64,000 nt of DNA from an uncultured Actinomycetes bacterium. Lineage in GTDB: Bacteria > Actinomycetota > Thermoleophilia > Solirubrobacterales > 70-9. The stretch spans positions 280,944 to 344,943 of the forward strand of contig CAVZAU010000005.1 of NCBI GenBank assembly GCA_963773445.1, given 5' to 3'. Below, in pieces: positions 5,279-50,968 of the stretch. Every line of letters begins with the position of its first letter. The stretch's first letter is position 1. Under the pieces are notes generated by a model. It was not told the DNA's origin. It saw nothing but the letters and a program-made list of their open reading frames with translations, and searched no databases. A program made the translations under genes and the position numbers.

Positions 5279-7450
5279 TCAGGCTGGATCGAGAGAGCGC
5301 CAGGCGCTCTTCGCCTCGGTCAAGCTGACCGAGAGGCTGCGGTCGCCGGCTCCGATCGCGATCTCCTCGCCGCCGACCGTGCCGATCAGGACGGCGCCCA
5401 GCTCTTCGAGATCCGGTCGGTCGCCGCTGACGAGGAAGCCGCCTGGACCCTCGCCGAAGAGGGCTTCCTCGGGTTGGGCGCCGCGCTCGCGCAGGTGTTC
5501 GACGTTGGCGTCGCACCCGATGCCGCCGGCGATCGCGGACTCGGCGAGGGCGCAGGCGAGGCCGCCGTCGGAGACGTCGTGGACGGAGGAGAGCCTGCCG
5601 GCGCGGACCGCGTCCCGGACGACGTCGCAGGCGGCGGCGACGGCGGCGACGTTGGGGCGGGGGAGGCCCATCTTCAGCTCGCCCCGCTGCTTGGCCAGCT
5701 CCGAGCCGGCGAGGCTCGGTTCGAAGGGGCCGACGAGGCCGATCGCGTCGCCTTCCTTGACGAAGGCGCTGCCGGCGACCTGGGCGGCGTCGGGCAGCTC
5801 GCCGACCATCGCCACGACCGGGGTCGGGTAGATCGGGCCGTCGGGCCCCTCGTTGTAGAGGGAGACGTTGCCGCCGACGACGGGGACGCCGAGGGCGTTG
5901 CAGGCGTCGGCGAGGCCGCTGACGGCGTGGTCGAGCTGCCAGGCGCCGGCCGGCTTCTCGGGGTTGCCGAAGTTGAGGCAGTTGGTGAGGCCGAGCGGCT
6001 CGGCGCCGACGCAGGCGAGGTTCTGCGCGCACTCGAGGACCGCCTCGATCGTCCCCTCGTAGGGGTCGCAGGCGACGCGGCGGCCGTTGCCGTCGATCGA
6101 GACGGCGATCGCGTTGCCGGCCTCGGGCAGCTGCAGGACGGCGGCGTCGGCCTGCTCGGGCCGGCGCACCGTGCGCGAGCCGACGATCGAGTCGTACTGC
6201 TCGAAGGCCCACCGCTTGGAGGCGATGTTGGGGGAGGAGAGCAGGGACAGCAGCTCCTGCTCGGGCGCGGCGCCCGGCGCCAGCGTCTCGCGGTTGCCGT
6301 AGATCCAGCCGTCCGGCTCGGCCGGATCGAGGTCGTAGAGGGGGCAGCCGTCGACCAGCGCCTCGACCGGCATCTCGCCGACGACGTCGCGCTCGCGGAG
6401 GATCCGGATCTGGCCACCCTCGGTGACGGTGCCGATCTCAGCCGAGCCGGTCTGCCATTTCTCGCAGATCGCCCGCACCTCCTCGACCCGGCTCGGCTCG
6501 ACCACCGCCAGCATCCGCTCCTGGCTCTCGGAGACCATGATCTCGAAGGGCTCCATGTCGGACTCCCGCAGCGGCACCCGGGCGACGTCGATGTCGATCC
6601 CGACCCCGCCGGCGCTCGCCATCTCCCCGGCCGAGGAGGTCAAGCCCGCGGCGCCGAGATCCTGCAGCGAGACGAGCAGCCCCTTCGCCAGCAGCTCCAG
6701 GCAGCACTCCAGCAGCTTCGACTCCTCGAAAGGGTCGCCGATCTGCACCGTCGGTCGCTTCGCCTCGTCGCCCTCGCCGAGCTCGGCCGAGGCGAGGACC
6801 GAGGCGCCGCCTATCCCGTCGCGCCCGGTCGAGGCGCCCATCAGGACGATCGAGTTGCCGACGCCGGCCGCCGCCGCCCGCACCATGTCCGCGGTCTTGG
6901 CGAAGCCGATGCACATCGCGTTGACCAGGCAGTTGTGCTCGTAGGGCTCCTCGAAGTAGATCTCGCCGCCGACCGTCGCCACCCCGATCGAGTTGCCATA
7001 GTGGCCGATGCCCCGCACAGCGCCGTCGAGCAGGTGGCGCGAGCGGACCGAGTCGAGCTCGCCGAAGCGGAGGCTGTCGAGGAGCGCGATCGGCCGCGCC
7101 CCGATCGCGAAGACGTCGCGCATGATGCCGCCGACTCCCGTCGCCGCGCCCTGGAACGGTTCCACCGCGCTGGGGTGGTTGTGGCTCTCGACCTTGAAGG
7201 CGACCGCGTACCCCTTGCCGACGTCGACGGCGCCGGCGTTCTCGCCGGGCCCCATCACCACCCGCTCGCCCTCGGTCGGCAGCCGCCGCAAGAGCTTGCG
7301 CGAGTGCTTGTAGGCGCAGTGCTCGGACCAGAGCAGGCTGAACATCGCCAGCTCGACGTCGTTCGGCTCCCGCCCCAGCTTCTCGACGATCAGCTCGTAC
7401 TCGGAGTCGGTGAGCCCGAGCTCGCGGTATTTCGGCGTCTCAACCGTCAT
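5279..7450 (-). CDS. purL: Phosphoribosylformylglycinamidine synthase subunit PurL (FGAM synthase II)
   Basis: 723 aa with two AIR-synthase-like halves (GVGGIMRDV, DVSDGGL). Sits in purS-purQ-purL order with 4-nt overlaps. Confidence 0.97.
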   Translation of the reverse strand: MTVETPKYRELGLTDSEYELIVEKLGREPNDVELAMFSLLWSEHCAYKHSRKLLRRLPTEGERVVMGPGENAGAVDVGKGYAVAFKVESHNHPSAVEPFQGAATGVGGIMRDVFAIGARPIALLDSLRFGELDSVRSRHLLDGAVRGIGHYGNSIGVATVGGEIYFEEPYEHNCLVNAMCIGFAKTADMVRAAAAGVGNSIVLMGASTGRDGIGGASVLASAELGEGDEAKRPTVQIGDPFEESKLLECCLELLAKGLLVSLQDLGAAGLTSSAGEMASAGGVGIDIDVARVPLRESDMEPFEIMVSESQERMLAVVEPSRVEEVRAICEKWQTGSAEIGTVTEGGQIRILRERDVVGEMPVEALVDGCPLYDLDPAEPDGWIYGNRETLAPGAAPEQELLSLLSSPNIASKRWAFEQYDSIVGSRTVRRPEQADAAVLQLPEAGNAIAVSIDGNGRRVACDPYEGTIEAVLECAQNLACVGAEPLGLTNCLNFGNPEKPAGAWQLDHAVSGLADACNALGVPVVGGNVSLYNEGPDGPIYPTPVVAMVGELPDAAQVAGSAFVKEGDAIGLVGPFEPSLAGSELAKQRGELKMGLPRPNVAAVAAACDVVRDAVRAGRLSSVHDVSDGGLACALAESAIAGGIGCDANVEHLRERGAQPEEALFGEGPGGFLVSGDRPDLEELGAVLIGTVGGEEIAIGAGDRSLSVSLTEAKSAWRSLDPA

Positions 7451-39885: not shown

Positions 39886-40734
39886 ATGGCGGCTATCGAT
39901 GTTCAGAGCGAGGGGCCTTCGGCTCGCACCGTGGGAGCGATCCTCGACGACGCGGCTGAGCGGATCGCCGCCGCCGGGGTCGAGGACTCCCGCACCGAGG
40001 CCGAAATCCTGGTCGCCGACGCGCTTGGCGTCGCGCCCAGCGAACTCAGCGTCGAGAGCGCCGGCGAGGTTGGCGCCGAGGCGGCCGAGAAGATCGAGCG
40101 CAACGTCCAGCGCCGGGTCGAGCGCGAGCCGATGGCCTACATCCTCGGTCGCGCGCCCTTTCGCAACCTCGAGATTTACGTTGACGAGCGCGTGCTCTGG
40201 CCGCGCCGGGAGACCGAGCTGCTGGTCGAGGTGGGAGCGTCGCTCCCCGAGGGCGCGCGCGTGCACGAGATCGGCACCGGCTCCGGCGCGATCGCGCTGG
40301 CGCTGATGTCAGAGCGCCCTGACCTGAAGGTGACCGCCTCGGACCTCTCGCCGGAAGCGGTCGAAGCGGCGCGGGAGAACGCCGAGCGGCTCGGGCTCGA
40401 CCTCGAGGTGACGGTCGGCAAGGGGCTGCCGGAGTCGGTCGAAGCCGAAGACGTCGACCTCGTGATCGCCAACATGCCCTACGTCACCGACGAGACCATC
40501 TTCGAGCGCTCGCCGGAGATCCAGAAGGAGCCGCGGATGGCGGTGACCGGCGATTGCGGCGAGGACGGCCTCGGCGTGATCCGCGGCGTCATCGCCGAAA
40601 CGCCCTCGGGCTGGAAGCTGGCGATGGAGCACGACACCCATCACGGGCCGGCGATGCGCGAGCTGCTGCGCGACGCGACTACCCTTCAGGACTATGAAGG
40701 GGATGACCGGGTCACCGTCGGCTACGCGCCCTGA
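39886..40734 (+). CDS. prmC: Release-factor glutamine N5-methyltransferase PrmC/HemK
   Basis: HEIGTGSGAIAL SAM motif and VIANMPYV (an NPPY-motif variant). ATG 39886 is preceded by GGAGGA. Confidence 0.9.
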   Translation: MAAIDVQSEGPSARTVGAILDDAAERIAAAGVEDSRTEAEILVADALGVAPSELSVESAGEVGAEAAEKIERNVQRRVEREPMAYILGRAPFRNLEIYVDERVLWPRRETELLVEVGASLPEGARVHEIGTGSGAIALALMSERPDLKVTASDLSPEAVEAARENAERLGLDLEVTVGKGLPESVEAEDVDLVIANMPYVTDETIFERSPEIQKEPRMAVTGDCGEDGLGVIRGVIAETPSGWKLAMEHDTHHGPAMRELLRDATTLQDYEGDDRVTVGYAP

Positions 40735-42224
40735 GGGGTTCCGGCGACCGCTCGGTTGCCGTCTCCACCGAGGAGCAGCGCCGGGCCAAGGTCGAGCGCC
40801 TGCGCGCGGAGGGGGTCGATCCCTACCCGCACGCGTTCCCGGGGCGGACGCACGTCGAGGAGATCGAAGCGAAGCACGACCCGGCCGAGCTGGGGGAGGG
40901 CGAGCACGAGGACTTCAGCTACCGGGTGATGGGCCGGGTCACCGGCAAGCGCGGGCACGGCAAGACGGCCTTCCTCGACGTCCGCGACATCACCGGCACG
41001 ATCCAGGCCTACGCGCGGCGCGACGCGCTGGGCGAGGAGGCGTTCGGGCGGGTCGAGGAGCTCGACATCGGCGACCTGGTCGGCGTCGAGGGGCCGCTGC
41101 ACGTGACCAAGCGCGGGCAGCTGGCGATCGGCGTGCGCGAGTGCACGCTGCTGGCAAAGGCGCTGAAAGACCCGCCGGACCTCTTTCACGGGATCTCCGA
41201 CCCGGATACGCGCTACCGCCAGCGCGAACTCGACCTGATGGCGAACGCCGACTCGCGGGAGATCTTCAAGAAGCGCGACGACCTGCTGTTCGCGATCCGC
41301 TGCCACATGCACGAGCGCGGCTGGGTCGAGCTGGAAACGCCGGTGCTGCAGCGGCTGACCGGCGGCGCCGCGGCGCGGCCGTTCGTCACCCATCACAACG
41401 CGCTCGACCGCGAGCTGTTCCTGCGGACGGCGACCGAGCTGTATCTGAAGCGGGCGATCGTCGGCGGCTTCGAGGACGTCTACGAGTTCGGCAAGTTCTT
41501 CCGCAACGAGGGAATGTCGCCGCAGCACAATCCCGAGTTCACGATGCTGGAGATGTTCGTCGGCGGCGCCGACTACAACGGCGTCATGGAGTTCATCGAG
41601 GTCCTGGTCGCGACCGTGGTCGAGAAGGTGATGGGGACGACGGTGGTGGAGCGCGACGGAGTCGAGATCGACTTCGCGGCGCCGTGGCCGCGGGTGCGGC
41701 TGCGCGACGAGCTGCTGCGGGAGATCGGGCTCGACATCTACGAGGCGAGCCGGGACGAGCTGGCCGAGGCGGCGGGGGACGCGGTCGACGAGAACGACGA
41801 CTGGGCCGGGGTGGTCGACACGCTGCAGGGCAAGTTCGTCGAGCCGAAGCTGATCCAGCCGACCTACATCATCGACCTGCCGGTCGACATCTGGCCGCTG
41901 GTCAAGGTCCACCCCGAGAGCCCGCGCATCTGCGAGGCCTTCGATGGCATCGTCGCCGGGATGGAGATCGTCGGCGGCGGGACCGACCTCAACGACCCGA
42001 TCGAGCAGCGCGAGCGCTTCATCAAGCAGCGCGAACGGCAGGAGAAAGGCGCCGAGCCCGATCCGCATCCACACGACGAAGAGTTCGTGCGGGCGCTCGA
42101 ATACGGGATGCCGCCGGCGAGCGGCTGCGGCCTGGGGATCGACCGGTTGCTGATGATCATGACCGGGGCGAAAACGCTTAGGGATGTGATCATCTACCCC
42201 GCGATGCGTGAGCAGAAGGACTAG
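40731..42224 (+). CDS. lysS: Lysine-tRNA ligase (class II)
   Basis: OB-fold N-domain, FRNEG (motif 2 region) and GLGIDRL (motif 3). The conserved N-terminus EEQRRAKVERLRAEGVDPYPHAF lies upstream of track GTG 40926, and the frame has no ATG/GTG/TTG back to the stop at 40704. The 5' end is placed at CTG 40731, overlapping the prmC TGA. Confidence 0.9.
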   Translation: MRGSGDRSVAVSTEEQRRAKVERLRAEGVDPYPHAFPGRTHVEEIEAKHDPAELGEGEHEDFSYRVMGRVTGKRGHGKTAFLDVRDITGTIQAYARRDALGEEAFGRVEELDIGDLVGVEGPLHVTKRGQLAIGVRECTLLAKALKDPPDLFHGISDPDTRYRQRELDLMANADSREIFKKRDDLLFAIRCHMHERGWVELETPVLQRLTGGAAARPFVTHHNALDRELFLRTATELYLKRAIVGGFEDVYEFGKFFRNEGMSPQHNPEFTMLEMFVGGADYNGVMEFIEVLVATVVEKVMGTTVVERDGVEIDFAAPWPRVRLRDELLREIGLDIYEASRDELAEAAGDAVDENDDWAGVVDTLQGKFVEPKLIQPTYIIDLPVDIWPLVKVHPESPRICEAFDGIVAGMEIVGGGTDLNDPIEQRERFIKQRERQEKGAEPDPHPHDEEFVRALEYGMPPASGCGLGIDRLLMIMTGAKTLRDVIIYPAMREQKD

Positions 42225-43851: not shown

Positions 43852-43890
43852 GATGCTCAGAACCCCTTGCGCGGGTATCGTTCCAGTCGA

Positions 43891-43986
43891 GCGCCCGTAG
43901 CTCAGTGGTCAACGGGTCCCTTCGGGGGCCCAAAGAGCGTCGGTCTTTCAAGCCGAAGGTCGCCGGTTCGAATCCGGTCGGGCGCA
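43891..43986 (+). tRNA. Atypical tRNA, anticodon UUC (Glu) by position, with an 18-nt hairpin inserted in the D-loop
   Basis: Hand-folded arms: acceptor GCGCCCG/CGGGCGC (7/7), D-stem GCTC/GAGC, anticodon arm TCGGT-CTTTCAA-GCCGA, T-arm GCCGG-TTCGAAT-CCGGT, discriminator A. The D-loop carries GGGTCCC-TTCG-GGGGCCC (43914-43931). 96 nt instead of ~76. Confidence 0.7.
43945..43962 (+). repeat. Direct repeat copy 1 (candidate attL core) inside the tRNA
   Basis: CTTTCAAGCCGAAGGTCG spans the anticodon loop to the variable loop. Identical to 49473-49490. Confidence 0.6.
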
Positions 43987-44150
43987 TTCTTTGGTGTTCC
44001 GCTTTGCACCGCGCGTTGCCAGGTGCAGAGCCAAGTCTTCGGTCTATCGTCGGATCGGCGTTCCGGTGGCGTCCTGGCGATTCCCCCGGGTTCCGGGGCG
44101 TCATGGTCTCATCTCGGTCTCATTTGTCCGCGCCGATTAGGGTCTCAGCG

Positions 44151-44348
44151 GTGCCGCCAGAGAAGGCCAAATCCCTCAAAGCTGTCCGCGCTGCGCAAAA
44201 GCAGTTCGAGCGCGACTCCTCTGCGGCTCAACGGGCACGCCGCAAAGCCTTCACCCAGGCTCAGAAAGAAGGGCTCTCTCTTCGCGAGATCGGCGAGGTG
44301 GTCGGCCTGCACCACACGCGCATCAGCCAAATCATCCGGGGAGAGTAG
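44151..44348 (+). CDS. Small HTH DNA-binding protein (sigma-70 region-4-like)
   Basis: C-terminal LSLREIGEVVGLHHTRISQIIRGE. Start is GTG 44151 or ATG 44103, both in frame in track ORF 43905..44348. Confidence 0.6.
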   Translation: MPPEKAKSLKAVRAAQKQFERDSSAAQRARRKAFTQAQKEGLSLREIGEVVGLHHTRISQIIRGE

Positions 44349-44437
44349 GGCGAGTTTGGAGAGTTTGACTCTCCAAAACTGCTAGCCTGCTGACATAAAA
44401 CAAAAAGCGCCCCCGCGCTGGTGGAACAGCCGGGGGC

Positions 44438-44755
44438 ATGGCACAGGAGGGGTTAGCTCCCATGCACGACAAGCCTAGAGGCGGCGGCGATGACGGCGCC
44501 GCGACCACCGCCGAATTGGACGCTCGCGACCAAGCGGCAGTTCTGAGACACGTCCTCTCGCTCCACCCGCAGACGCTTACGGAGCTTGAGTTGCTGAAGG
44601 AAATGACCGGGGGAGGGGAGGCGACCTTCGCCGACCGCGACCGGTACCGGCGAGCGGTCCGCGATCTCGCCGCAGGCGGCCTGCTCAGGCCGGAGGGAAG
44701 CCTGGTCGTCCCGACGAGAGCCGCCGTCCTCTTCCACGAGCTGGCCGAACTCTGA
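44438..44755 (+). CDS. Hypothetical small protein (possible winged-helix)
   Basis: 105-aa ORF, first gene of an overlapping three-gene set (TGATG junction with the next gene). No family recognised. Confidence 0.55.
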   Translation: MAQEGLAPMHDKPRGGGDDGAATTAELDARDQAAVLRHVLSLHPQTLTELELLKEMTGGGEATFADRDRYRRAVRDLAAGGLLRPEGSLVVPTRAAVLFHELAEL

Positions 44756-45042
44756 TGGACGGCAGAAGCGTGGACCGCGAGGTCGCCGGGCAGCTCGGAA
44801 GGAACGTGTGGCTGGCGCGTCGCCGCGCCGGCTTCTCCCAGGAAGCGCTCGGCGCCATCGCCTCGCTCCACCGCACCGAGATCGGGCTGATCGAGCATGG
44901 CCAACGACTGCCGCGCGTGGACACGCTGATGAGGCTCGCTGGAGCCCTCGACGTGCGCGTGGAAAGCCTGCTGGAGGGCATCGCCTGGATTGCGCCGGGT
45001 CCGAGCGCACGAGGCAGCTTCGTCGTCAGGAGGTTCGGATGA
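44755..45042 (+). CDS. XRE-family HTH transcriptional regulator
   Basis: GRNVWLARRRAGFSQEALGAIASLHRTEIGLIEHGQRLPRVDTLMRLAGAL is a classic Cro/C1-type HTH. Confidence 0.85.
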   Translation: MDGRSVDREVAGQLGRNVWLARRRAGFSQEALGAIASLHRTEIGLIEHGQRLPRVDTLMRLAGALDVRVESLLEGIAWIAPGPSARGSFVVRRFG

Positions 45043-45269
45043 ACCCCAAGAACCAGATGAACACCAAGCTCACGAGCGTCCGGCTTCCGAAGGACCTGGC
45101 CGACGAACTCGATGCCGTCGCCAGGGCGGACCACCTCCCGGTCTCAGAACTGGTCCGCGCGGCGCTCTACCGCTTCATCGCGGAACGACGCACCGAGCCC
45201 GACTTCAAGGAGCGACTGAAAGAGGTGCTTGAAGAAGACCGCAAGACCCTAGAGCGGCTGGCGACGTAA
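45039..45269 (+). CDS. Ribbon-helix-helix (CopG-like) protein
   Basis: TKLTSVRLPKDLADELDAVARADHLPVSELVRAALYRFI. ATG 45039 overlaps the upstream stop (ATGA). Confidence 0.85.
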   Translation: MNPKNQMNTKLTSVRLPKDLADELDAVARADHLPVSELVRAALYRFIAERRTEPDFKERLKEVLEEDRKTLERLAT

Positions 45270-45696
45270 GAGCGATCACTTCATGGATCGCGTCGCGCGG
45301 GGGGGAAGGAGGACCGCCCCCAGTCCCCGCCGACTTTCAAAGAACCCCGAGACCCGAATCAAAGACCCCGATCCAGCTCTGAGGATGCAACCACCGAGCC
45401 CGAACCTGATGCACGAAGCACAGACTCCCCACGAAGCTTCGCTACGGGCCTATGGCCCTACTCGAAGCCCCGACACACTACGAACCCTCCGGATTCGGCT
45501 ATTTCAAGCTGCCCTTCCCGCCCCTCCGGGCGGCCGATTTTGGCACGGCTTCGCCGTGCGGAGGCCGCCTTTAAGGAGGGCCGGGAGGGGTCTGACCTTC
45601 GGTCGGATTTCGATGCACACGCCGGTCTTGCCGGACAGAAGGGGCATGGCGGCAACTCACCCCGTGCAGATCGTCTTCTCCGGTGGCAAGGAGGGC

Positions 45697-45891
45697 ATGC
45701 AGACCAAAGCCAGCGACCCGACCTTCTTCACCGAGCGGACGCTTGCCGACTACCTGGCGGTCTCGGATCGGACCGTCCGCAACTGGATCAGACGCGGCGA
45801 GCTGCCCAGCTACAAGCTCGGCGCATCCAGACGGATTGACCCTGCCGACGTCGAGGACTTCCTCTTGCGCCACAGGGACGAGGCATCGTGA
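45697..45891 (+). CDS. xis: Excisionase-family (MerR-like HTH) DNA-binding protein
   Basis: TLADYLAVSDRTVRNWIRRGELPSYKLGASRRIDPADVEDFL. 4-nt overlap with the integrase start. Confidence 0.85.
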   Translation: MQTKASDPTFFTERTLADYLAVSDRTVRNWIRRGELPSYKLGASRRIDPADVEDFLLRHRDEAS

Positions 45892-46991
45892 GGCGCGACT
45901 CTCCCGTCAAGCGCCAAAACCCGTCCGGCCAGGTCGTGTGGGTCGCCAGGTACACCGGCCGCGACGGCAAACGCCATATCGCCAAGCCGACCTGGAACCG
46001 AGGCAAAGGAACCTTCGCCAGGAAAGGCGATGCGCAGAAAGCCATCGACGAGGCATACGGGCTCTCGGATCGTCCCGACACCCTCGGCGACTATGGCGCC
46101 ACCTGGACCGAGCGGCATCCGCGATCCGAGCGCACCAACGCGACGAACGACCACCGCATCAGCCGGGTTGCCGACGTCGAGATTGAGGGCATCCCGTTGA
46201 AGGACTGGTCGCTCCGCGAGCTGCGCCGTCGTCACACGCTCGCCCTGGTGGACCACATGTTGAGGACCGAAGGTCGAGCAACCACCGGAGCCGTGGGCAT
46301 CCTCCGCGCCCTCTCGGCGATGGCCGAGGACGCGATCACCGACGAAGTCTGCGACCTCAACCCGTTCAAGGGCGTCCGCATCCGAGCCAATGATCCGAGA
46401 GCGCAGAAGAAGCCAAGGCCGATCCGCGTCTTCAACTTCGAGGAGATGCACCGCTTCGGAAAAGCCGCCGGTCGCTACGAGGCGATGGTCCGCGTCTTCA
46501 CCGACTGCGGCCTCAGGCTGGGGGAGGTGCTGCCGCTGCGCCGAGAAGACTTCGACGGCGAGACCCTCCAAGTCCGCCGCACCGCCCACGAGGGTCAGAT
46601 TCTCGAAGGCACCAAGACCGACCACGGCGAGCCCGACGCGGGACGCATCGTCCCCGTGCCGGCGACCCTTGCCTGGATGCTCGAAGCTCAGATCAACCTC
46701 AACGGCGAGGGCTGCGAACTGCTCTTCACGACCCCGAGAGGCCGCCTCTGGCGTGAGCGCACCTTCTACCGCGACCTCTGGAAACCGACCCAGGAATCCT
46801 CCGGACTAGACATCCGCCCCCACGAGTGTCGCCACAGCTACATCACGCATCTACGGGCAGCTGGCGTTAACGACGCCGATTTGGCCGAGATTGCAGGGCA
46901 CCGGGTTGAGACGATGTTGGCCCGCTACACGCATGCGATGCATATGAGCCATCCGAGAATTCGGGAAGCAATCGAGCAAATCGACCCCTGA
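45888..46991 (+). CDS. int: Tyrosine-type site-specific integrase
   Basis: 367 aa. The C-terminal catalytic region has HECRHSYITHL (HxxR) and AGHRVETMLARYTH (His...Tyr). Confidence 0.95.
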   Translation: MRRDSPVKRQNPSGQVVWVARYTGRDGKRHIAKPTWNRGKGTFARKGDAQKAIDEAYGLSDRPDTLGDYGATWTERHPRSERTNATNDHRISRVADVEIEGIPLKDWSLRELRRRHTLALVDHMLRTEGRATTGAVGILRALSAMAEDAITDEVCDLNPFKGVRIRANDPRAQKKPRPIRVFNFEEMHRFGKAAGRYEAMVRVFTDCGLRLGEVLPLRREDFDGETLQVRRTAHEGQILEGTKTDHGEPDAGRIVPVPATLAWMLEAQINLNGEGCELLFTTPRGRLWRERTFYRDLWKPTQESSGLDIRPHECRHSYITHLRAAGVNDADLAEIAGHRVETMLARYTHAMHMSHPRIREAIEQIDP

Positions 46992-47010
46992 GCCGGCGAA
47001 CTTTCATGAG

Positions 47011-48471
47011 CTAAATGATTTCGGAAAATCGATCAGCCATATAGTCGAAGACGGCACTGGCTCCGTGCTCGTCATCTTCTTTTCGAGCTTCGACTAGATC
47101 CTGCAAATCATTGTCGTCTAGGACGATGACAAAGCCTCGATCATCGCTTGCCGTGTCGCGGCATTTCTGAATGAAACGCGGCTTGTCTTTGAAGCTCCGA
47201 CAGACCAAGAGACCGAAAGTGCCCCTCGCCTTGCTGAAGCGACCGGAAATCTGGTCAAGCGCGTCGTTTTTCAGATCACCTTTGTAGTTCTTGCACTCTA
47301 CGAAGCAGTAGGGCTGGGGCTTGTAGTTGGATTGTGCCCAGCCGAAGAAGCCGCCGATCCCGTTATTGGTGTATCGGATATCAACCCTCTTTCGACCCTG
47401 GTGCAGCTCCGACTCAATTCTGGGGGCCGAAAGCGATGGATAGAACATCGCCGTCAGAAATTTCTCTACCGCTCGATGGTAGTCGGACGCAGCGGCGCTT
47501 CCAGTTGGAACTTGAACCACCCTGGCGAGAAGCGAATCCCAATCCGGCGCAGGGGCCCCCGTTAGATTCTCAAGGTCGTCGTAGGAGAGCGGGGGGTCGC
47601 GAAATGCCTGTTTCGACTTGTCTTTCCTGTATTGCTCAAGAAGGCCAGGTTCTTCCAGCGTGGTTTCTTCGTTGGCGGGCTTGATAGCAGGGTTGACCCC
47701 AAAGTATTTCTTTTGCACGTCCTTCTTGTAGACGCGCTTTTCCCCGCTTTTAAGCGTATGGACGAGGTTAGTTCCCGCCGAAAGCTCGCGGTTCTGAAGC
47801 GCCTCCAGAATGTATCCACGGAAGTACTCGCCAGGGTTGAAATCCAGGCGCGTCCGCACGATCACTTTGGGGACGAGGATTAAAGGACCAACCGGCGTCA
47901 TCGGTAAGTGCCCATATTCTTCGGAGCTCCAAGCACCGGTGGCCGTGTCCCAAATATGCCCAGTGCCCACCTGCTCAATTGGAATGCCGTAATGCTCGGC
48001 CATCTCTTGCGTATAGTCGATGAGAGGTTGACGAATAATGTTGGTCGTAATGTCTGAGATGCGGTCTACATCGATCCCGTAGATCACCAGAGCAGTGTCC
48101 TCAAGATCCTTCAGTAGGCCAGTTTTGGCCGCCTCGCTCTTTCTCATTCGCTCCCAAACACGATCCACTAAGCCCGGCCCTAGACCGCTTCCCCGGGGGC
48201 GATCTGCCGAAAGGCCAAGGTGCGTCTCGTTCGGCTCTCGCAACCCTTCAAGGAGGTCAAGGCCCCGATCGCGGTCGTCGTTGCGAACTGCTTTCAGGAC
48301 CTGCTTGAAAAAATCCTGAAGCAGTCCTACGCAGCCTTCCGCCCACTCGCTTTCTATCCGGCGAATTGCACGCGGCTCTACAAATGCCCGGGTATCTCCT
48401 TCCAACTCAACATCGATGAAGTCGAGTGCCCCTTGGGACTGGTCGAGACCGAAATGCTCTGAGATTCGCAT
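47011..48471 (-). CDS. Hypothetical 486-aa protein: unrecognised N-terminal ~340 aa plus PD-(D/E)xK (Mrr/restriction-endonuclease-like) C-terminal domain
   Basis: The C-terminus has ...GRKRVDIRYTNNG... followed ~27 residues later by CFVECKNYKG (a D...ExK pattern). The gene sits in the lowest-G+C stretch of the window. Confidence 0.85.
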   Translation of the reverse strand: MRISEHFGLDQSQGALDFIDVELEGDTRAFVEPRAIRRIESEWAEGCVGLLQDFFKQVLKAVRNDDRDRGLDLLEGLREPNETHLGLSADRPRGSGLGPGLVDRVWERMRKSEAAKTGLLKDLEDTALVIYGIDVDRISDITTNIIRQPLIDYTQEMAEHYGIPIEQVGTGHIWDTATGAWSSEEYGHLPMTPVGPLILVPKVIVRTRLDFNPGEYFRGYILEALQNRELSAGTNLVHTLKSGEKRVYKKDVQKKYFGVNPAIKPANEETTLEEPGLLEQYRKDKSKQAFRDPPLSYDDLENLTGAPAPDWDSLLARVVQVPTGSAAASDYHRAVEKFLTAMFYPSLSAPRIESELHQGRKRVDIRYTNNGIGGFFGWAQSNYKPQPYCFVECKNYKGDLKNDALDQISGRFSKARGTFGLLVCRSFKDKPRFIQKCRDTASDDRGFVIVLDDNDLQDLVEARKEDDEHGASAVFDYMADRFSEII

Positions 48472-48708
48472 TCAAGCATCTTACTGTGCTGTGAATTATC
48501 TAGAATACTGCAAGTAATTTTACACGCGAGTTCTTCTTCCTAACACCATGTTGGTCATGGTCGCGCGCCTGAGAGTGGCGGGGCAAGGTCTAGCGAGTCG
48601 AGAATGGTGCGAATCGGCGAAAGTCGCGGCAGATTGGGGTCGCATGGTGTGAGTCTTTGGCGCGCGCCATTACCCGATTCGTTCAGTGGCCATTACGATT
48701 TCGGGGGC

Positions 48709-49026
48709 ATGCAGCTAGTTGATGAGACTTTGATCGCTGAGGCCGGGCGTCGCCTGGCAGCGGCTGCTCCTGACTCCCAGGTCATTTTGTTCGGCTCCCA
48801 CGCTCGTGGAGATGCGACTCCGCACAGCGATGTCGACTTCTTGGTCGTGGAGCCGGAGGTCGCTAACGAGGCTGAGGAGTCGGTTCGCCTTCATCGCACC
48901 CTGCGCGATCTGCGCCTGCCGGCCGATGTCATTGTCGTCAGCCGCGAGTACGCCGACCGGTGGCGAGAGGTGCGCGGCGGCGTTGTCCACGCTGCTCTTT
49001 CGCAGGGGCGGGTGCTGGCCGGATGA
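48709..49026 (+). CDS. MNT-type nucleotidyltransferase (antitoxin of HEPN/MNT module)
   Basis: LFGSHARGDATPHSDVDFLVV (GSx10-ish DxD). ATG 48709 is in frame in track ORF 48604..49026. Confidence 0.88.
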   Translation: MQLVDETLIAEAGRRLAAAAPDSQVILFGSHARGDATPHSDVDFLVVEPEVANEAEESVRLHRTLRDLRLPADVIVVSREYADRWREVRGGVVHAALSQGRVLAG

Positions 49027-49415
49027 GTGCCACGCCGGACCTGCCCGCTGATCTTCTCGCTCTTGCCCGTGAGGATCTTGCATCTGCCGAAGCGCTTGAC
49101 CGGGCGGAGCAAGTGTCGGATGCGCCGGTCGGGTTCCATGCCCAGCAGGCCGTCGAGAAGGCGCTGAAGGCGGCCATCGCGAGGGGCGACCAAGATTTCC
49201 CCTTCACCCACGATCTCGGCCTTCTCATGCAGCTCTGCCAAGACGCGGGGCTTGAGCTGCCCGCTGATCTCACCGACGCTGATCGCCTCACCCCTTACGC
49301 GGCGGCTGTTCGATACGGCCTCGGCGACCCGGGTGCTGTCGCTACCGCTGATGCTCTGCGATGGGCTGGGCTCGCCGTCGAGTGGGCTGACACTCAGCTT
49401 CGCTCGGATTCCTAG
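49023..49415 (+). CDS. HEPN-domain protein (toxin of HEPN/MNT module)
   Basis: FHAQQAVEKALKAAI HEPN helix. The ATG overlaps the MNT stop (ATGA). Confidence 0.85.
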   Translation: MSATPDLPADLLALAREDLASAEALDRAEQVSDAPVGFHAQQAVEKALKAAIARGDQDFPFTHDLGLLMQLCQDAGLELPADLTDADRLTPYAAAVRYGLGDPGAVATADALRWAGLAVEWADTQLRSDS

Positions 49416-49472
49416 TCTCATCCCGGTCGCATCGCCGCCGCAATTCCGCTGCCCGCGCGGAGGACCTTTCTC

Positions 49473-50921: not shown

Positions 50922-50968
50922 CCCTGCCAGGGGTCATAGCTTTAGAGCGGCGCCGCTAATGTCATCCC

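Follow-up and report, generated by a model that had tools for sequence, protein, structure and literature searches.

The subject of this analysis is a 64,000-nucleotide stretch of DNA from an uncultured actinobacterium of the order Solirubrobacterales (assembly GCA_963773445.1, contig CAVZAU010000005.1; the whole stretch is referred to here as the window), and within it a transfer RNA (tRNA) gene with the anticodon UUC, the D-loop of which holds a 7-base-pair (bp) hairpin capped by a UUCG tetraloop. Elongator tRNAs are among the most shape-constrained RNAs known, and the question raised by this locus is whether such a gene encodes a working tRNA and, if so, what the additional helix does. An earlier note on this DNA had reported a structured D-loop insert, abnormal for bacteria, on a tRNA(UUC) with four regular arms; this could be confirmed and extended to a whole order. 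Judging from sequence comparison, the gene very probably represents a genuine, selected and translation-competent tRNA(UUC) with a conserved fifth arm. Our explanation as a whole – that this is the tRNA-Glu(UUC) of the lineage, that the arm is retained in the mature tRNA and that it acts in discrimination by its shape – appears moderately probable, with its individual parts carrying different degrees of confidence as set out below.

Structure of the tRNA gene

The extent of the gene, exactly 43891–43986 on the plus strand and thus 96 nucleotides (nt), is agreed upon by ARAGORN and by the Rfam tRNA model RF00005, which matches end to end (model positions 1–71 of 71) with a score of 66.2 bits against a gathering score of 29; relatives of the gene score 64–68 bits with the same model. 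The 5' part reads GCGCCCG TA GCTC AGTGGTCAAC-GGGTCCC-TTCG-GGGGCCC-AAA GAGC G and the 3' part TCGGT CTTTCAA GCCGA AGGTC GCCGG TTCGAAT CCGGT CGGGCGC A, with the following features:

43891–43986, plus strand: tRNA gene, anticodon UUC (Glu codon GAA), CCA not encoded; found by RF00005, ARAGORN and the family covariance model R1 (117.9 bits)
43891–43897, plus strand: 5' strand of the acceptor stem, 7 bp with 43979–43985, discriminator A73 at 43986; 100% of cells paired
43900–43903, plus strand: 5' strand of the D-stem, GCTC, with its partner GAGC at 43935–43938; without variation among the 36 host and phage members of alignment A5
43904–43934, plus strand: 31-nt D-loop, consisting of A14 G15 U16 G18 G19 U20, linker CAAC, hairpin, linker AA and A21
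43914–43931, plus strand: extra arm at D-loop position 20a/20b, 7 bp GGGTCCC/GGGGCCC (one U.G pair) with a UUCG cap
43940–43956, plus strand: anticodon arm, stem TCGGT/GCCGA, loop CTTTCAA at 43945–43951, anticodon TTC at 43947–43949
43957–43961, plus strand: variable loop AGGTC, 5 nt, nucleotide 47 present (read from the sequence)
43962–43978, plus strand: T-arm GCCGG TTCGAAT CCGGT, probably from an integrated element
43876–43881, plus strand: putative own promoter, a –10-like TANNNT hexamer (TATCGT) ending 10 nt 5' of the tRNA; proposed from motif conservation

Thus, all elements of the fold given in the earlier note – the four canonical arms and the D-loop hairpin at 43914–43931 – are present at these coordinates. 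The Infernal alignment treats 25 nt in the D-loop as an insertion; counted as CAAC-hairpin-AA the insert comprises 24 nt and is placed between U20 and A21. The nucleotides of the tertiary interactions (U8, A14, G18 G19, A21, U33, G53 T54 T55 C56 and A58) are all present in this alignment. The RNA folds with –46.2 kcal/mol, 2.9 standard deviations better than shuffled sequences (none of 200 being as good), and the hairpin appears in the minimum-energy as well as in the centroid structure. Since 37 of 100 shuffles yield at least one match to the hairpin 18-mer within three mismatches, a lone hairpin copy would not exclude chance, and it is the comparative data that settle whether the structure is real. 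Two other identities of the hairpin were rejected at this level: an intrinsic terminator, as there is no T-run 3' of the hairpin on either strand and the sole terminator-like call is the T-arm, and a dispersed palindromic repeat, as the hairpin is present in a single copy in the 64-kb window even with three mismatches allowed.

The expectation that standard tRNA finders would mishandle the gene held for ARAGORN only in part and not for Infernal: ARAGORN does not miss the gene, but mislabels it, whilst Infernal handles it well. The ARAGORN label is 'tRNA-???' for the window gene and Pro(GGG/AGG), Thr(GGU/AGU), Ala(AGC) or undetermined for its relatives, because the anticodon is placed inside the hairpin stem. 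This parse was rejected as an alternative structure: the "anticodon" so defined varies from one genome to the next along with the covarying stem, CUUUCAA stays constant and the D-loop insert is backed by Infernal. A hairpin-less 73-nt 'tRNA-Glu' called in two of the fetched loci (these are numbered with the prefix L; here L018 and L085) likewise turned out to be an ARAGORN artefact that starts inside the hairpin. Inventories of tRNAs and estimates of codon capacity that are based on ARAGORN may hence be wrong for Solirubrobacterales and their phages.

In 76 of 115 orthologous loci (among the matches listed, see below), the DNA upstream of the gene contains a TANNNT hexamer with its end at –10 to –12, and none of them has one in a control window 30 nt further upstream; a generic sigma-70 promoter scan found nothing.

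Conservation of the arm in Solirubrobacterales

The window gene has prmC, lysS, a beta-lactamase-like gene and an SDR gene on the minus strand as its neighbours. Homologues of the encoded LysRS with 87–94% identity all stem from metagenome-assembled Solirubrobacterales genomes, and at the orthologous lysS loci, which come from different projects, a 96-nt tRNA with a 25-nt insert lies downstream of the SDR gene in four of four cases; in one of these four, a pair of the hairpin stem is already C-G in place of G-C, a compensatory change. A genome collection was scanned with a pattern consisting of the D-stem 3' strand, the anticodon loop (UUC or CUC), the variable loop and the T-loop, with the D-loop left unconstrained. 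This returned at least 120 loci, and the counts given from here on refer to the matches listed. At least 112 of them are full-length family members, every one of which carries the insert, three are partial copies and five are unrelated UUC tRNAs of other phyla or tRNA-like sequence. Carriers are labelled Solirubrobacterales, Solirubrobacteraceae, Thermoleophilia or generic actinobacteria, the exception being one 2.6-kb contig binned as Dormiibacterota. The gene is present on complete Solirubrobacterales chromosomes as well (OY970241.1, OY970365.1, OY968772.1, OY970161.1, OY970074.1, OY969103.1, OY969574.1, OY970219.1, OY970329.1, OY969580.1, OY970236.1, OY969812.1, OY970316.1 and OY970377.1). 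No CUC anticodon on the body of the hairpin tRNA was found among these matches, though the pattern permitted it.

The host set used in the following combines the window, the four lysS loci and 112 scan copies. Its 117 copies represent 29 distinct sequences with 19 distinct hairpins, and the comparison of orthologous loci that had been proposed in the earlier note thus finds the hairpin in all of them, the four lysS loci included. The hairpin length is 18 nt in 116 of the 117 copies; the linkers are invariant with the exception of one C/A variation (U20-C/A-A-A-C before the hairpin, A-A before A21), and the anticodon loop CUUUCAA is invariant throughout. Neighbouring Val, Thr and Ser tRNAs at these loci are of normal length.

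The pattern of substitutions is that of a maintained helix. In an ungapped, host-only alignment of 28 distinct sequences (A3), 99.6% of cells across the structure are paired, compared to 34–52% when the partners are slid by 1–3 columns. For the hairpin, 98.5% of cells are paired, double changes occur in four of seven pairs and up to six pair types are found at one pair; RNAalifold finds the hairpin independently. A covariance model built from the host alignment (R1) separates family members (76–119 bits) from ordinary tRNAs (at most 62 bits) and was used to fit an alignment of 36 host and phage members (A5). Here, all seven hairpin pairs show double changes with 96% of cells paired, although A5 leans towards the structure of its model, a caveat that does not apply to the host-only result from A3. 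As for the regular stems, acceptor pairs 1–3 are invariant and pairs 4–7 display compensatory changes once the phage members are added; the anticodon and T stems display such changes as well, and the D-stem is invariant.

The hairpin tRNA in viral contigs

Family members are also present in viral contigs, the hosts of which are inferred; the fetched loci cover only part of each viral contig, and the tRNA counts refer to that part. In L133 (at least 14 tRNAs), L135 (28 tRNAs), L144 (29 tRNAs) and L136, the hairpin type is the only UUC species identified by ARAGORN or Infernal. L135 and L136 also hold a classical-bodied tRNA-Glu(CUC), UCGUCUAG...GGAC (GUCU...GGAC), with a 4-nt variable loop, and for L144 there is a Glu(CUC) call. 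As these arrays otherwise hold isoacceptor pairs, for example Lys(UUU)/Lys(CUU) and Gln(UUG)/Gln(CUG), and the hairpin type is their sole UUC species, it follows that the hairpin tRNA fills the Glu(UUC) slot. Viral contigs of 39–69% GC keep the hairpin at the same site and add new stems (GTACAC/GTGTAC, CTGAACC/GGTCAG and GAGAACC/GGTCTC), a GNRA loop (L138), alternative linkers (CAAA...GAA) and hairpin lengths of 16–22 nt. Annotated phage and plasmid collections gave no match to the 5' half of the tRNA and only generic similarity to its 3' half.

Probable decoding of GAA by an atypical tRNA body

At 121 aligned GAA codons from 33 orthologous gene pairs, the partner is GAA in 70 cases, GAG in 31 and AAA or AAG in none; in lysS, GAA is the minority Glu codon and exchanges mainly with GAG. 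This exchange between orthologues indicates that GAA still means Glu, and the hairpin tRNA is presumably charged with this amino acid. The set of identity elements established for E. coli tRNA-Glu comprises the strong determinants U34, U35, C36 and A37, the major determinants U11-A24, the U13-G22:A46 triple and absence of nucleotide 47, and the weak determinants G1-C72 and U2-A71 (PMC9976931). The hairpin tRNA exhibits U34, U35, C36 and A37 (loop C U U U C A A) together with G1-C72, has C2-G71 in place of U2-A71 and lacks the determinants of the D-arm and variable loop: C11-G24 (invariant in the family), C13-G22 and a 5-nt AGGUC with nucleotide 47 are found instead. The observation in the earlier note that the body is unlike typical tRNA-Glu is therefore borne out by comparison with this set (PMC9976931), and the viral arrays pair such a body with a canonical-bodied Glu(CUC). 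Measured against reference tRNAs of the same loci, identity is 0.72–0.75 to the Lys, Thr, Val and Asp isotypes versus 0.61–0.70 to canonical Glu(CUC), differences that amount to a few percent. A single substitution separates the anticodon loop from CUUUUAA, the loop of Lys(UUU), and the gene lies 1.7 kb from lysS, which we treat as a lead only. Neither a GluRS gene nor a canonical tRNA-Glu was found in the approximately 1 Mb of Solirubrobacterales DNA at the fetched loci.

UUC tRNAs of normal length with a generic (Lys/Val-like) body were also encountered outside the family, namely at L019 78–150 (Lachnospiraceae), in L006, L072 and L082, and in the viral loci L137/L145, L141/L147, L143 and L139; the carriers are unrelated bacteria, one archaeon and low-GC viral arrays. 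The E. coli identity set may thus overstate how universally tRNA-Glu possesses the augmented D-helix.

Possible role of the fifth arm

A possible role is suggested by the position of the arm. In tRNA-Asp and tRNA-Glu, the extra base 20A/20B is turned outwards at the place where the D- and T-loops meet; it collides there with the tail domain of GatB and, together with G1-C72, blocks the amidation of Asp-tRNA(Asp) and Glu-tRNA(Glu) by GatCAB (PMC1635274, PMC2811023). As the 20a/20b site points to solvent, a helix can probably exit the core here without breaking the G18G19–T-loop contact, and as it is by an extra base at this site that GatCAB rejects canonical tRNA-Glu, the site already serves discrimination in the Glu/Gln system. 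Furthermore, only pairing is conserved in the hairpin and not the sequence of stem or loop, which fits best with a role of shape or bulk.

We thus propose that the tRNA-Glu(UUC) of Solirubrobacterales would be a functional, normally single-copy GAA decoder in which a generic class-I body stands in place of the canonical tRNA-Glu body and a fifth helical arm, a hairpin of about 7 bp on short conserved linkers, is set into the D-loop at 20a/20b. The arm would leave the elbow where the 20a/20b bases flip out, with the L-shape, the G18G19–T-loop contact and use by the ribosome preserved, comparably to class II tRNAs with their long variable arm. Through its shape or steric bulk, it would serve discrimination within the network of Glu/Gln charging. 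Three versions of this role appear similarly likely: the arm could be a GluRS determinant that replaces the missing augmented D-helix, an enlarged anti-determinant against GatCAB, or an anti-determinant against a non-cognate synthetase, for example LysRS. The ND-GluRS/GatCAB route is in general use among actinobacteria. Retention of the arm in the mature tRNA is likely, whilst the role of the arm in discrimination is a tentative suggestion that could well prove wrong.

Several observations weigh against this proposal. A second, canonical tRNA-Glu(UUC) may exist elsewhere in these genomes, the tRNA inventory being that of the fetched loci, although the viral arrays argue otherwise indirectly. 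UUC tRNAs that lack the hairpin but have a similar generic body are present on the low-GC viral contigs L137, L141 and L143, from which it is clear that generic bodies without the arm are acceptable to some GluRS enzymes. G1-C72 alone is already a strong anti-determinant against GatCAB, so that a large arm seems more than this role needs. Finally, the drift of the viral hairpins in length (16–22 nt) and of their linkers (to CAAA...GAA) speaks for the principal alternative, in which the arm is a neutral expansion.

According to this alternative, a palindromic insert became fixed at a permissive site in the ancestor of the order, has no specific partner or function, and persists as a hairpin since an unstructured or misfolding insert would do harm. 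Free variation of the stem and loop sequences with retention of pairing alone is in agreement with such an origin, as is the natural tolerance of position 20a/20b towards extra flipped-out bases. However, no hairpin-less copy occurs in the 117 listed host genomes or in any high-GC viral contig, though deletion would be simple; the host length is held at exactly 18 nt in all but one of the listed copies, with linkers that are invariant in a search unbiased towards them; the arm is kept on viral contigs over a wide range of GC content; and within the 64-kb window the hairpin is not a dispersed repeat. We therefore regard neutral expansion as unlikely, although it is the main alternative to a discriminating arm.

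Excision of the arm is a different matter, as it would leave the mature tRNA with a standard structure: the insert of about 24 nt would be an intervening sequence removed by a bacterial endonuclease together with a ligase such as RtcB, giving a mature tRNA of about 72 nt. Removing CAAC-hairpin-AA leaves a perfectly standard AGUGGUA D-loop, the conserved linkers and hairpin could act as a processing signal, and archaeal non-canonical introns at D-loop positions, to which the earlier note had alluded, are likewise short inserts in an otherwise canonical tRNA gene. This allusion remains unsupported: archaeal introns exhibit a bulge-helix-bulge motif, in which a 4-bp helix lies between two 3-nt bulges where exon and intron meet, and are spliced by EndA, whereas the hairpin tRNA is bacterial and shows, in fold and covariation, no such motif but a continuous 7-bp stem with single-stranded CAAC and AA flanks and mostly stable tetraloops. 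Group I introns of bacterial tRNAs are self-splicing ribozymes of roughly 200 nt or more situated in the anticodon loop, for which a 24-nt insert in the D-loop is far too small and wrongly placed. To our knowledge, group I is the only established intron type in bacterial tRNA genes; we know of no protein-dependent tRNA splicing pathway in bacteria and of no bacterial EndA splicing endonuclease. An Rfam scan of the window matched no intron family, and nothing similar is contained in a 2020 review of non-canonical tRNAs. Excision is, on this evidence, improbable.

A slightly smaller probability still is given to a specialised isoacceptor, where the hairpin tRNA would serve a non-ribosomal use of Glu-tRNA or regulation (candidates being glutamyl-tRNA reductase in haem synthesis and tRNA-dependent peptide modification) and a canonical tRNA-Glu(UUC) encoded elsewhere would translate. 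This division of labour would be compatible with a body that is atypical for Glu, with the known users of Glu-tRNA outside translation and with an inventory that covers the fetched loci. Against it stand the viral arrays, which support translation and hold the hairpin type as their only UUC species beside canonical Glu(CUC), and the housekeeping neighbourhood (prmC, lysS) without linkage to genes of haem synthesis or peptide modification.

Recoding or mischarging, with a Lys/Val-like body charged with an amino acid other than Glu and GAA partly or wholly reassigned, is very improbable: the single substitution that separates the loop from that of Lys(UUU), the proximity of lysS and the nearest-isotype identities, which slightly favour Lys, Thr and Val over canonical Glu, are set against isotype differences of only a few percent and against GAA codons that exchange mainly with GAG and never with Lys codons in the 33 orthologous gene pairs. 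A decaying pseudogene or an assembly artefact, the two scenarios named in the earlier note as refuting it, can practically be dismissed: a single copy taken by itself could be either, and a 46-nt deletion at the start of the window lysS makes local damage or assembly error conceivable, but conservation across 117 listed assemblies of different projects, compensatory substitutions in all variable stems, the invariant anticodon loop and the viral copies exclude both.

Comparison with known tRNA systems

Canonical bacterial tRNA-Glu(UUC) shares with the hairpin tRNA the determinants of the anticodon loop (U34 U35 C36 A37), G1-C72, the inferred decoding of GAA and extra material at 20a/20b, but possesses an augmented D-helix and one flipped-out base where the hairpin tRNA has C11-G24, C13-G22, nucleotide 47, C2-G71 and 24 nt forming a helix. 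The position of this material is identical to that of the GatCAB anti-determinant 20A/20B (PMC1635274, PMC2811023), and G1-C72 is again present, here in an actinobacterial lineage; the known element is, however, a single base as opposed to a hairpin of about 7 bp, and the likeness is one of position, read from sequence. The class II tRNAs (Leu, Ser and bacterial Tyr) also have a protruding fifth arm conserved in structure and not in sequence, one that is compatible with the ribosome and, in known cases, read by synthetases through its shape and orientation. Their arm lies at 44–48 and not at D-loop position 20a/20b, the variable loop of the hairpin tRNA is 5 nt in length and the isotypes are others. 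With tRNA-Sec and the allo-tRNAs (PMC7609411), the family has in common that they are natural bacterial departures from the standard cloverleaf and that members with other anticodons exist; they differ in having 8/5, 8/4 or 9/3 acceptor/T-stems, 6-bp D-stems and long variable arms, with none displaying a helix in the D-loop (PMC7609411). A 2020 review of naturally non-canonical tRNAs lists no helix inside the D-loop, and no description of a D-loop-hairpin tRNA was found in full-text literature, the journal coverage of which is incomplete, so that a prior mention is possible. With its fifth arm in the D-loop, the tRNA thus appears to break the rule of the four-armed cloverleaf in a natural and so far undescribed way, and the family appears to be a natural five-armed tRNA for an ordinary sense codon, spread over a whole abundant soil order and viral contigs.

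Should the mature tRNA keep the arm, a helix beside the elbow would be tolerated by the ribosome, by EF-Tu and RNase P and by the modification enzymes. The family would then offer a new test case for GluRS, GatCAB and other synthetases in which the classical Glu D-arm signature is missing, as well as a natural scaffold with a built-in structural handle for tRNA engineering.

The tRNA gene as attachment site of an integrated island

The earlier note had further named the tRNA as the integration target of the adjacent element, and this is substantiated by a tyrosine integrase, an 18-nt direct repeat and full-length repeats in seven relatives. The features concerned are:

43945–43962, plus strand: attL core, left copy of the 18-nt exact direct repeat CTTTCAAGCCGAAGGTCG, starting at the first base of the anticodon loop
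49473–49490, plus strand: attR core, right copy of the repeat; nothing more of the displaced 3' part of the tRNA is present here
43963–49472: 5.5-kb integrated island with 59–65% GC (a dip in GC)
within 44808–45269: RHH protein, identified like the other domains by Pfam and NCBIfam searches of the island
within 45283–45891: HTH_17 excisionase-like protein
45888–46991: tyrosine integrase (Phage_integrase domain, E = 1.8e-15)
47011–48471, minus strand: 486-aa protein without a Pfam or NCBIfam match, between the integrase and the MNT/HEPN pair
48604–49026 and 48960–49415: MNT/HEPN pair

Homologous integrases with 48–95% identity are located up to 6 kb downstream of the hairpin tRNA in about 43 of the 117 genomes. 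In seven loci (L017, L023, L024, L035, L066, L107 and L116), the second repeat copy begins at CTTTCAA and extends as far as the tRNA's 3' end, as a native 3' part should if displaced by a crossover in the anticodon loop; the far end retains no more than the 18-nt core in the window, L092 and L094. L094 shares the right end of the island and this similarity stops at the repeat. In the island-free locus L002, different genes lie downstream, and synteny is regained near window position 50951. Judged by LysRS, the closest relatives (L002–L004) exhibit a T-arm of GCGGG TTCGACT CCCGT versus GCCGG/CCGGT in the window. Tyrosine-integrase islands of one family thus use the gene as their attB site, with recombination taking place in the anticodon loop and the 3' part of the tRNA being replaced. 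In the window, the element probably supplied everything 3' of the anticodon loop, T-arm included, and the hairpin belongs to the chromosomal 5' part. An association of the T-arm type of the window with the downstream integrase was considered and not cleanly obtained, with integrases occurring alongside several T-arm types. In comparison to known tRNA islands with crossover in the anticodon loop, the tyrosine integrase, the excisionase-like HTH protein, the repeat starting from the anticodon loop and the duplicated 3' part (in relatives) are all the same, and the window differs only in that the far-end copy is reduced to 18 nt.

Two further loci bear on this site. L098 contains at 1727–1790 an isolated tRNA 3' fragment that starts from the D-stem 3' strand (GAGCG...) and has no 5' half upstream: this is another kind of attachment remnant, with an identity block longer than that of the anticodon-loop type. 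MohnsGC08_bin146 (L040, L044), with the gene sitting at two contig ends, gives the impression of an assembly broken at the integration hotspot.

Variant tRNAs and further observations

In rare members, the acceptor stem, D-stem and hairpin of the family also occur with other anticodons: CCU (L126 4638–4735, the same in L127, L130 and L131; the contig bears tail sheath and tape-measure genes), GCG (L128 892–986), ACC (L129 10031–10124, next to an IS1595 transposase) and UGC (L134 2235–2329, a viral contig, 64.1 bits), all scoring 64–65 bits as tRNAs. One reading of the family as a whole would make the D-loop arm, and not the anticodon, the dominant identity element, recognised either by a dedicated enzyme or by some feature of GluRS specific to the lineage, in a manner likened to the use of the long variable arm by SerRS. 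We consider this improbable, to much the same degree as excision of the arm. Were it true, the CCU, GCG, ACC and UGC variants would receive Glu and place it at codons for Arg, Gly or Ala; they would then represent recoding or mistranslating tRNAs that occur naturally on phages, and the scaffold would be an orthogonal tRNA ready for use.

Further unusual genes accompany the hairpin tRNA on viral contigs. L144 encodes at 801–892 a second UUC tRNA of 92 nt with a different D-loop hairpin and the same kind of acceptor stem. A 123-nt tRNA-like gene with inserts in the D-loop and the anticodon loop and a degenerate T-loop is found at L140 1003–1125, and an 89-nt tRNA-like gene with a hairpin inside an enlarged anticodon loop at L142 9631–9719; both share the acceptor-stem type of the hairpin tRNA, which their contigs also carry. 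L135 contains a tmRNA match (6699–7089, 48 bits) as well as a match to the tRNA-Sec model (5452–5539), the anticodon loop of which reads UGA and which is probably a tRNA-Ser(UGA).

In some host subclades, the hairpin tRNA belongs to a small cluster of tRNAs: it lies 5 nt from a tRNA-Val(UAC) in L012 (7226–7398) and within 3 kb of tRNA-Thr(GGU) and tRNA-Ser(CGA) in L008, L017, L020, L067 and L087. The metagenome-assembled genome CRAIB_MAG25 (L020, L100) has two subtypes of the hairpin tRNA on separate contigs, which represents either a real second copy or a mixed bin. In the window itself, comparison of 40690–40940 with L001 and L002 reveals a deletion of about 46 nt that removes the prmC–lysS spacer together with the lysS ATG and first codons. 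The LysRS frame is open from 40707, with no ATG, GTG or TTG before 40926, which implies either an unusual start codon or loss of approximately 70 N-terminal residues; a 433-aa homologue (P0069) is also recorded.

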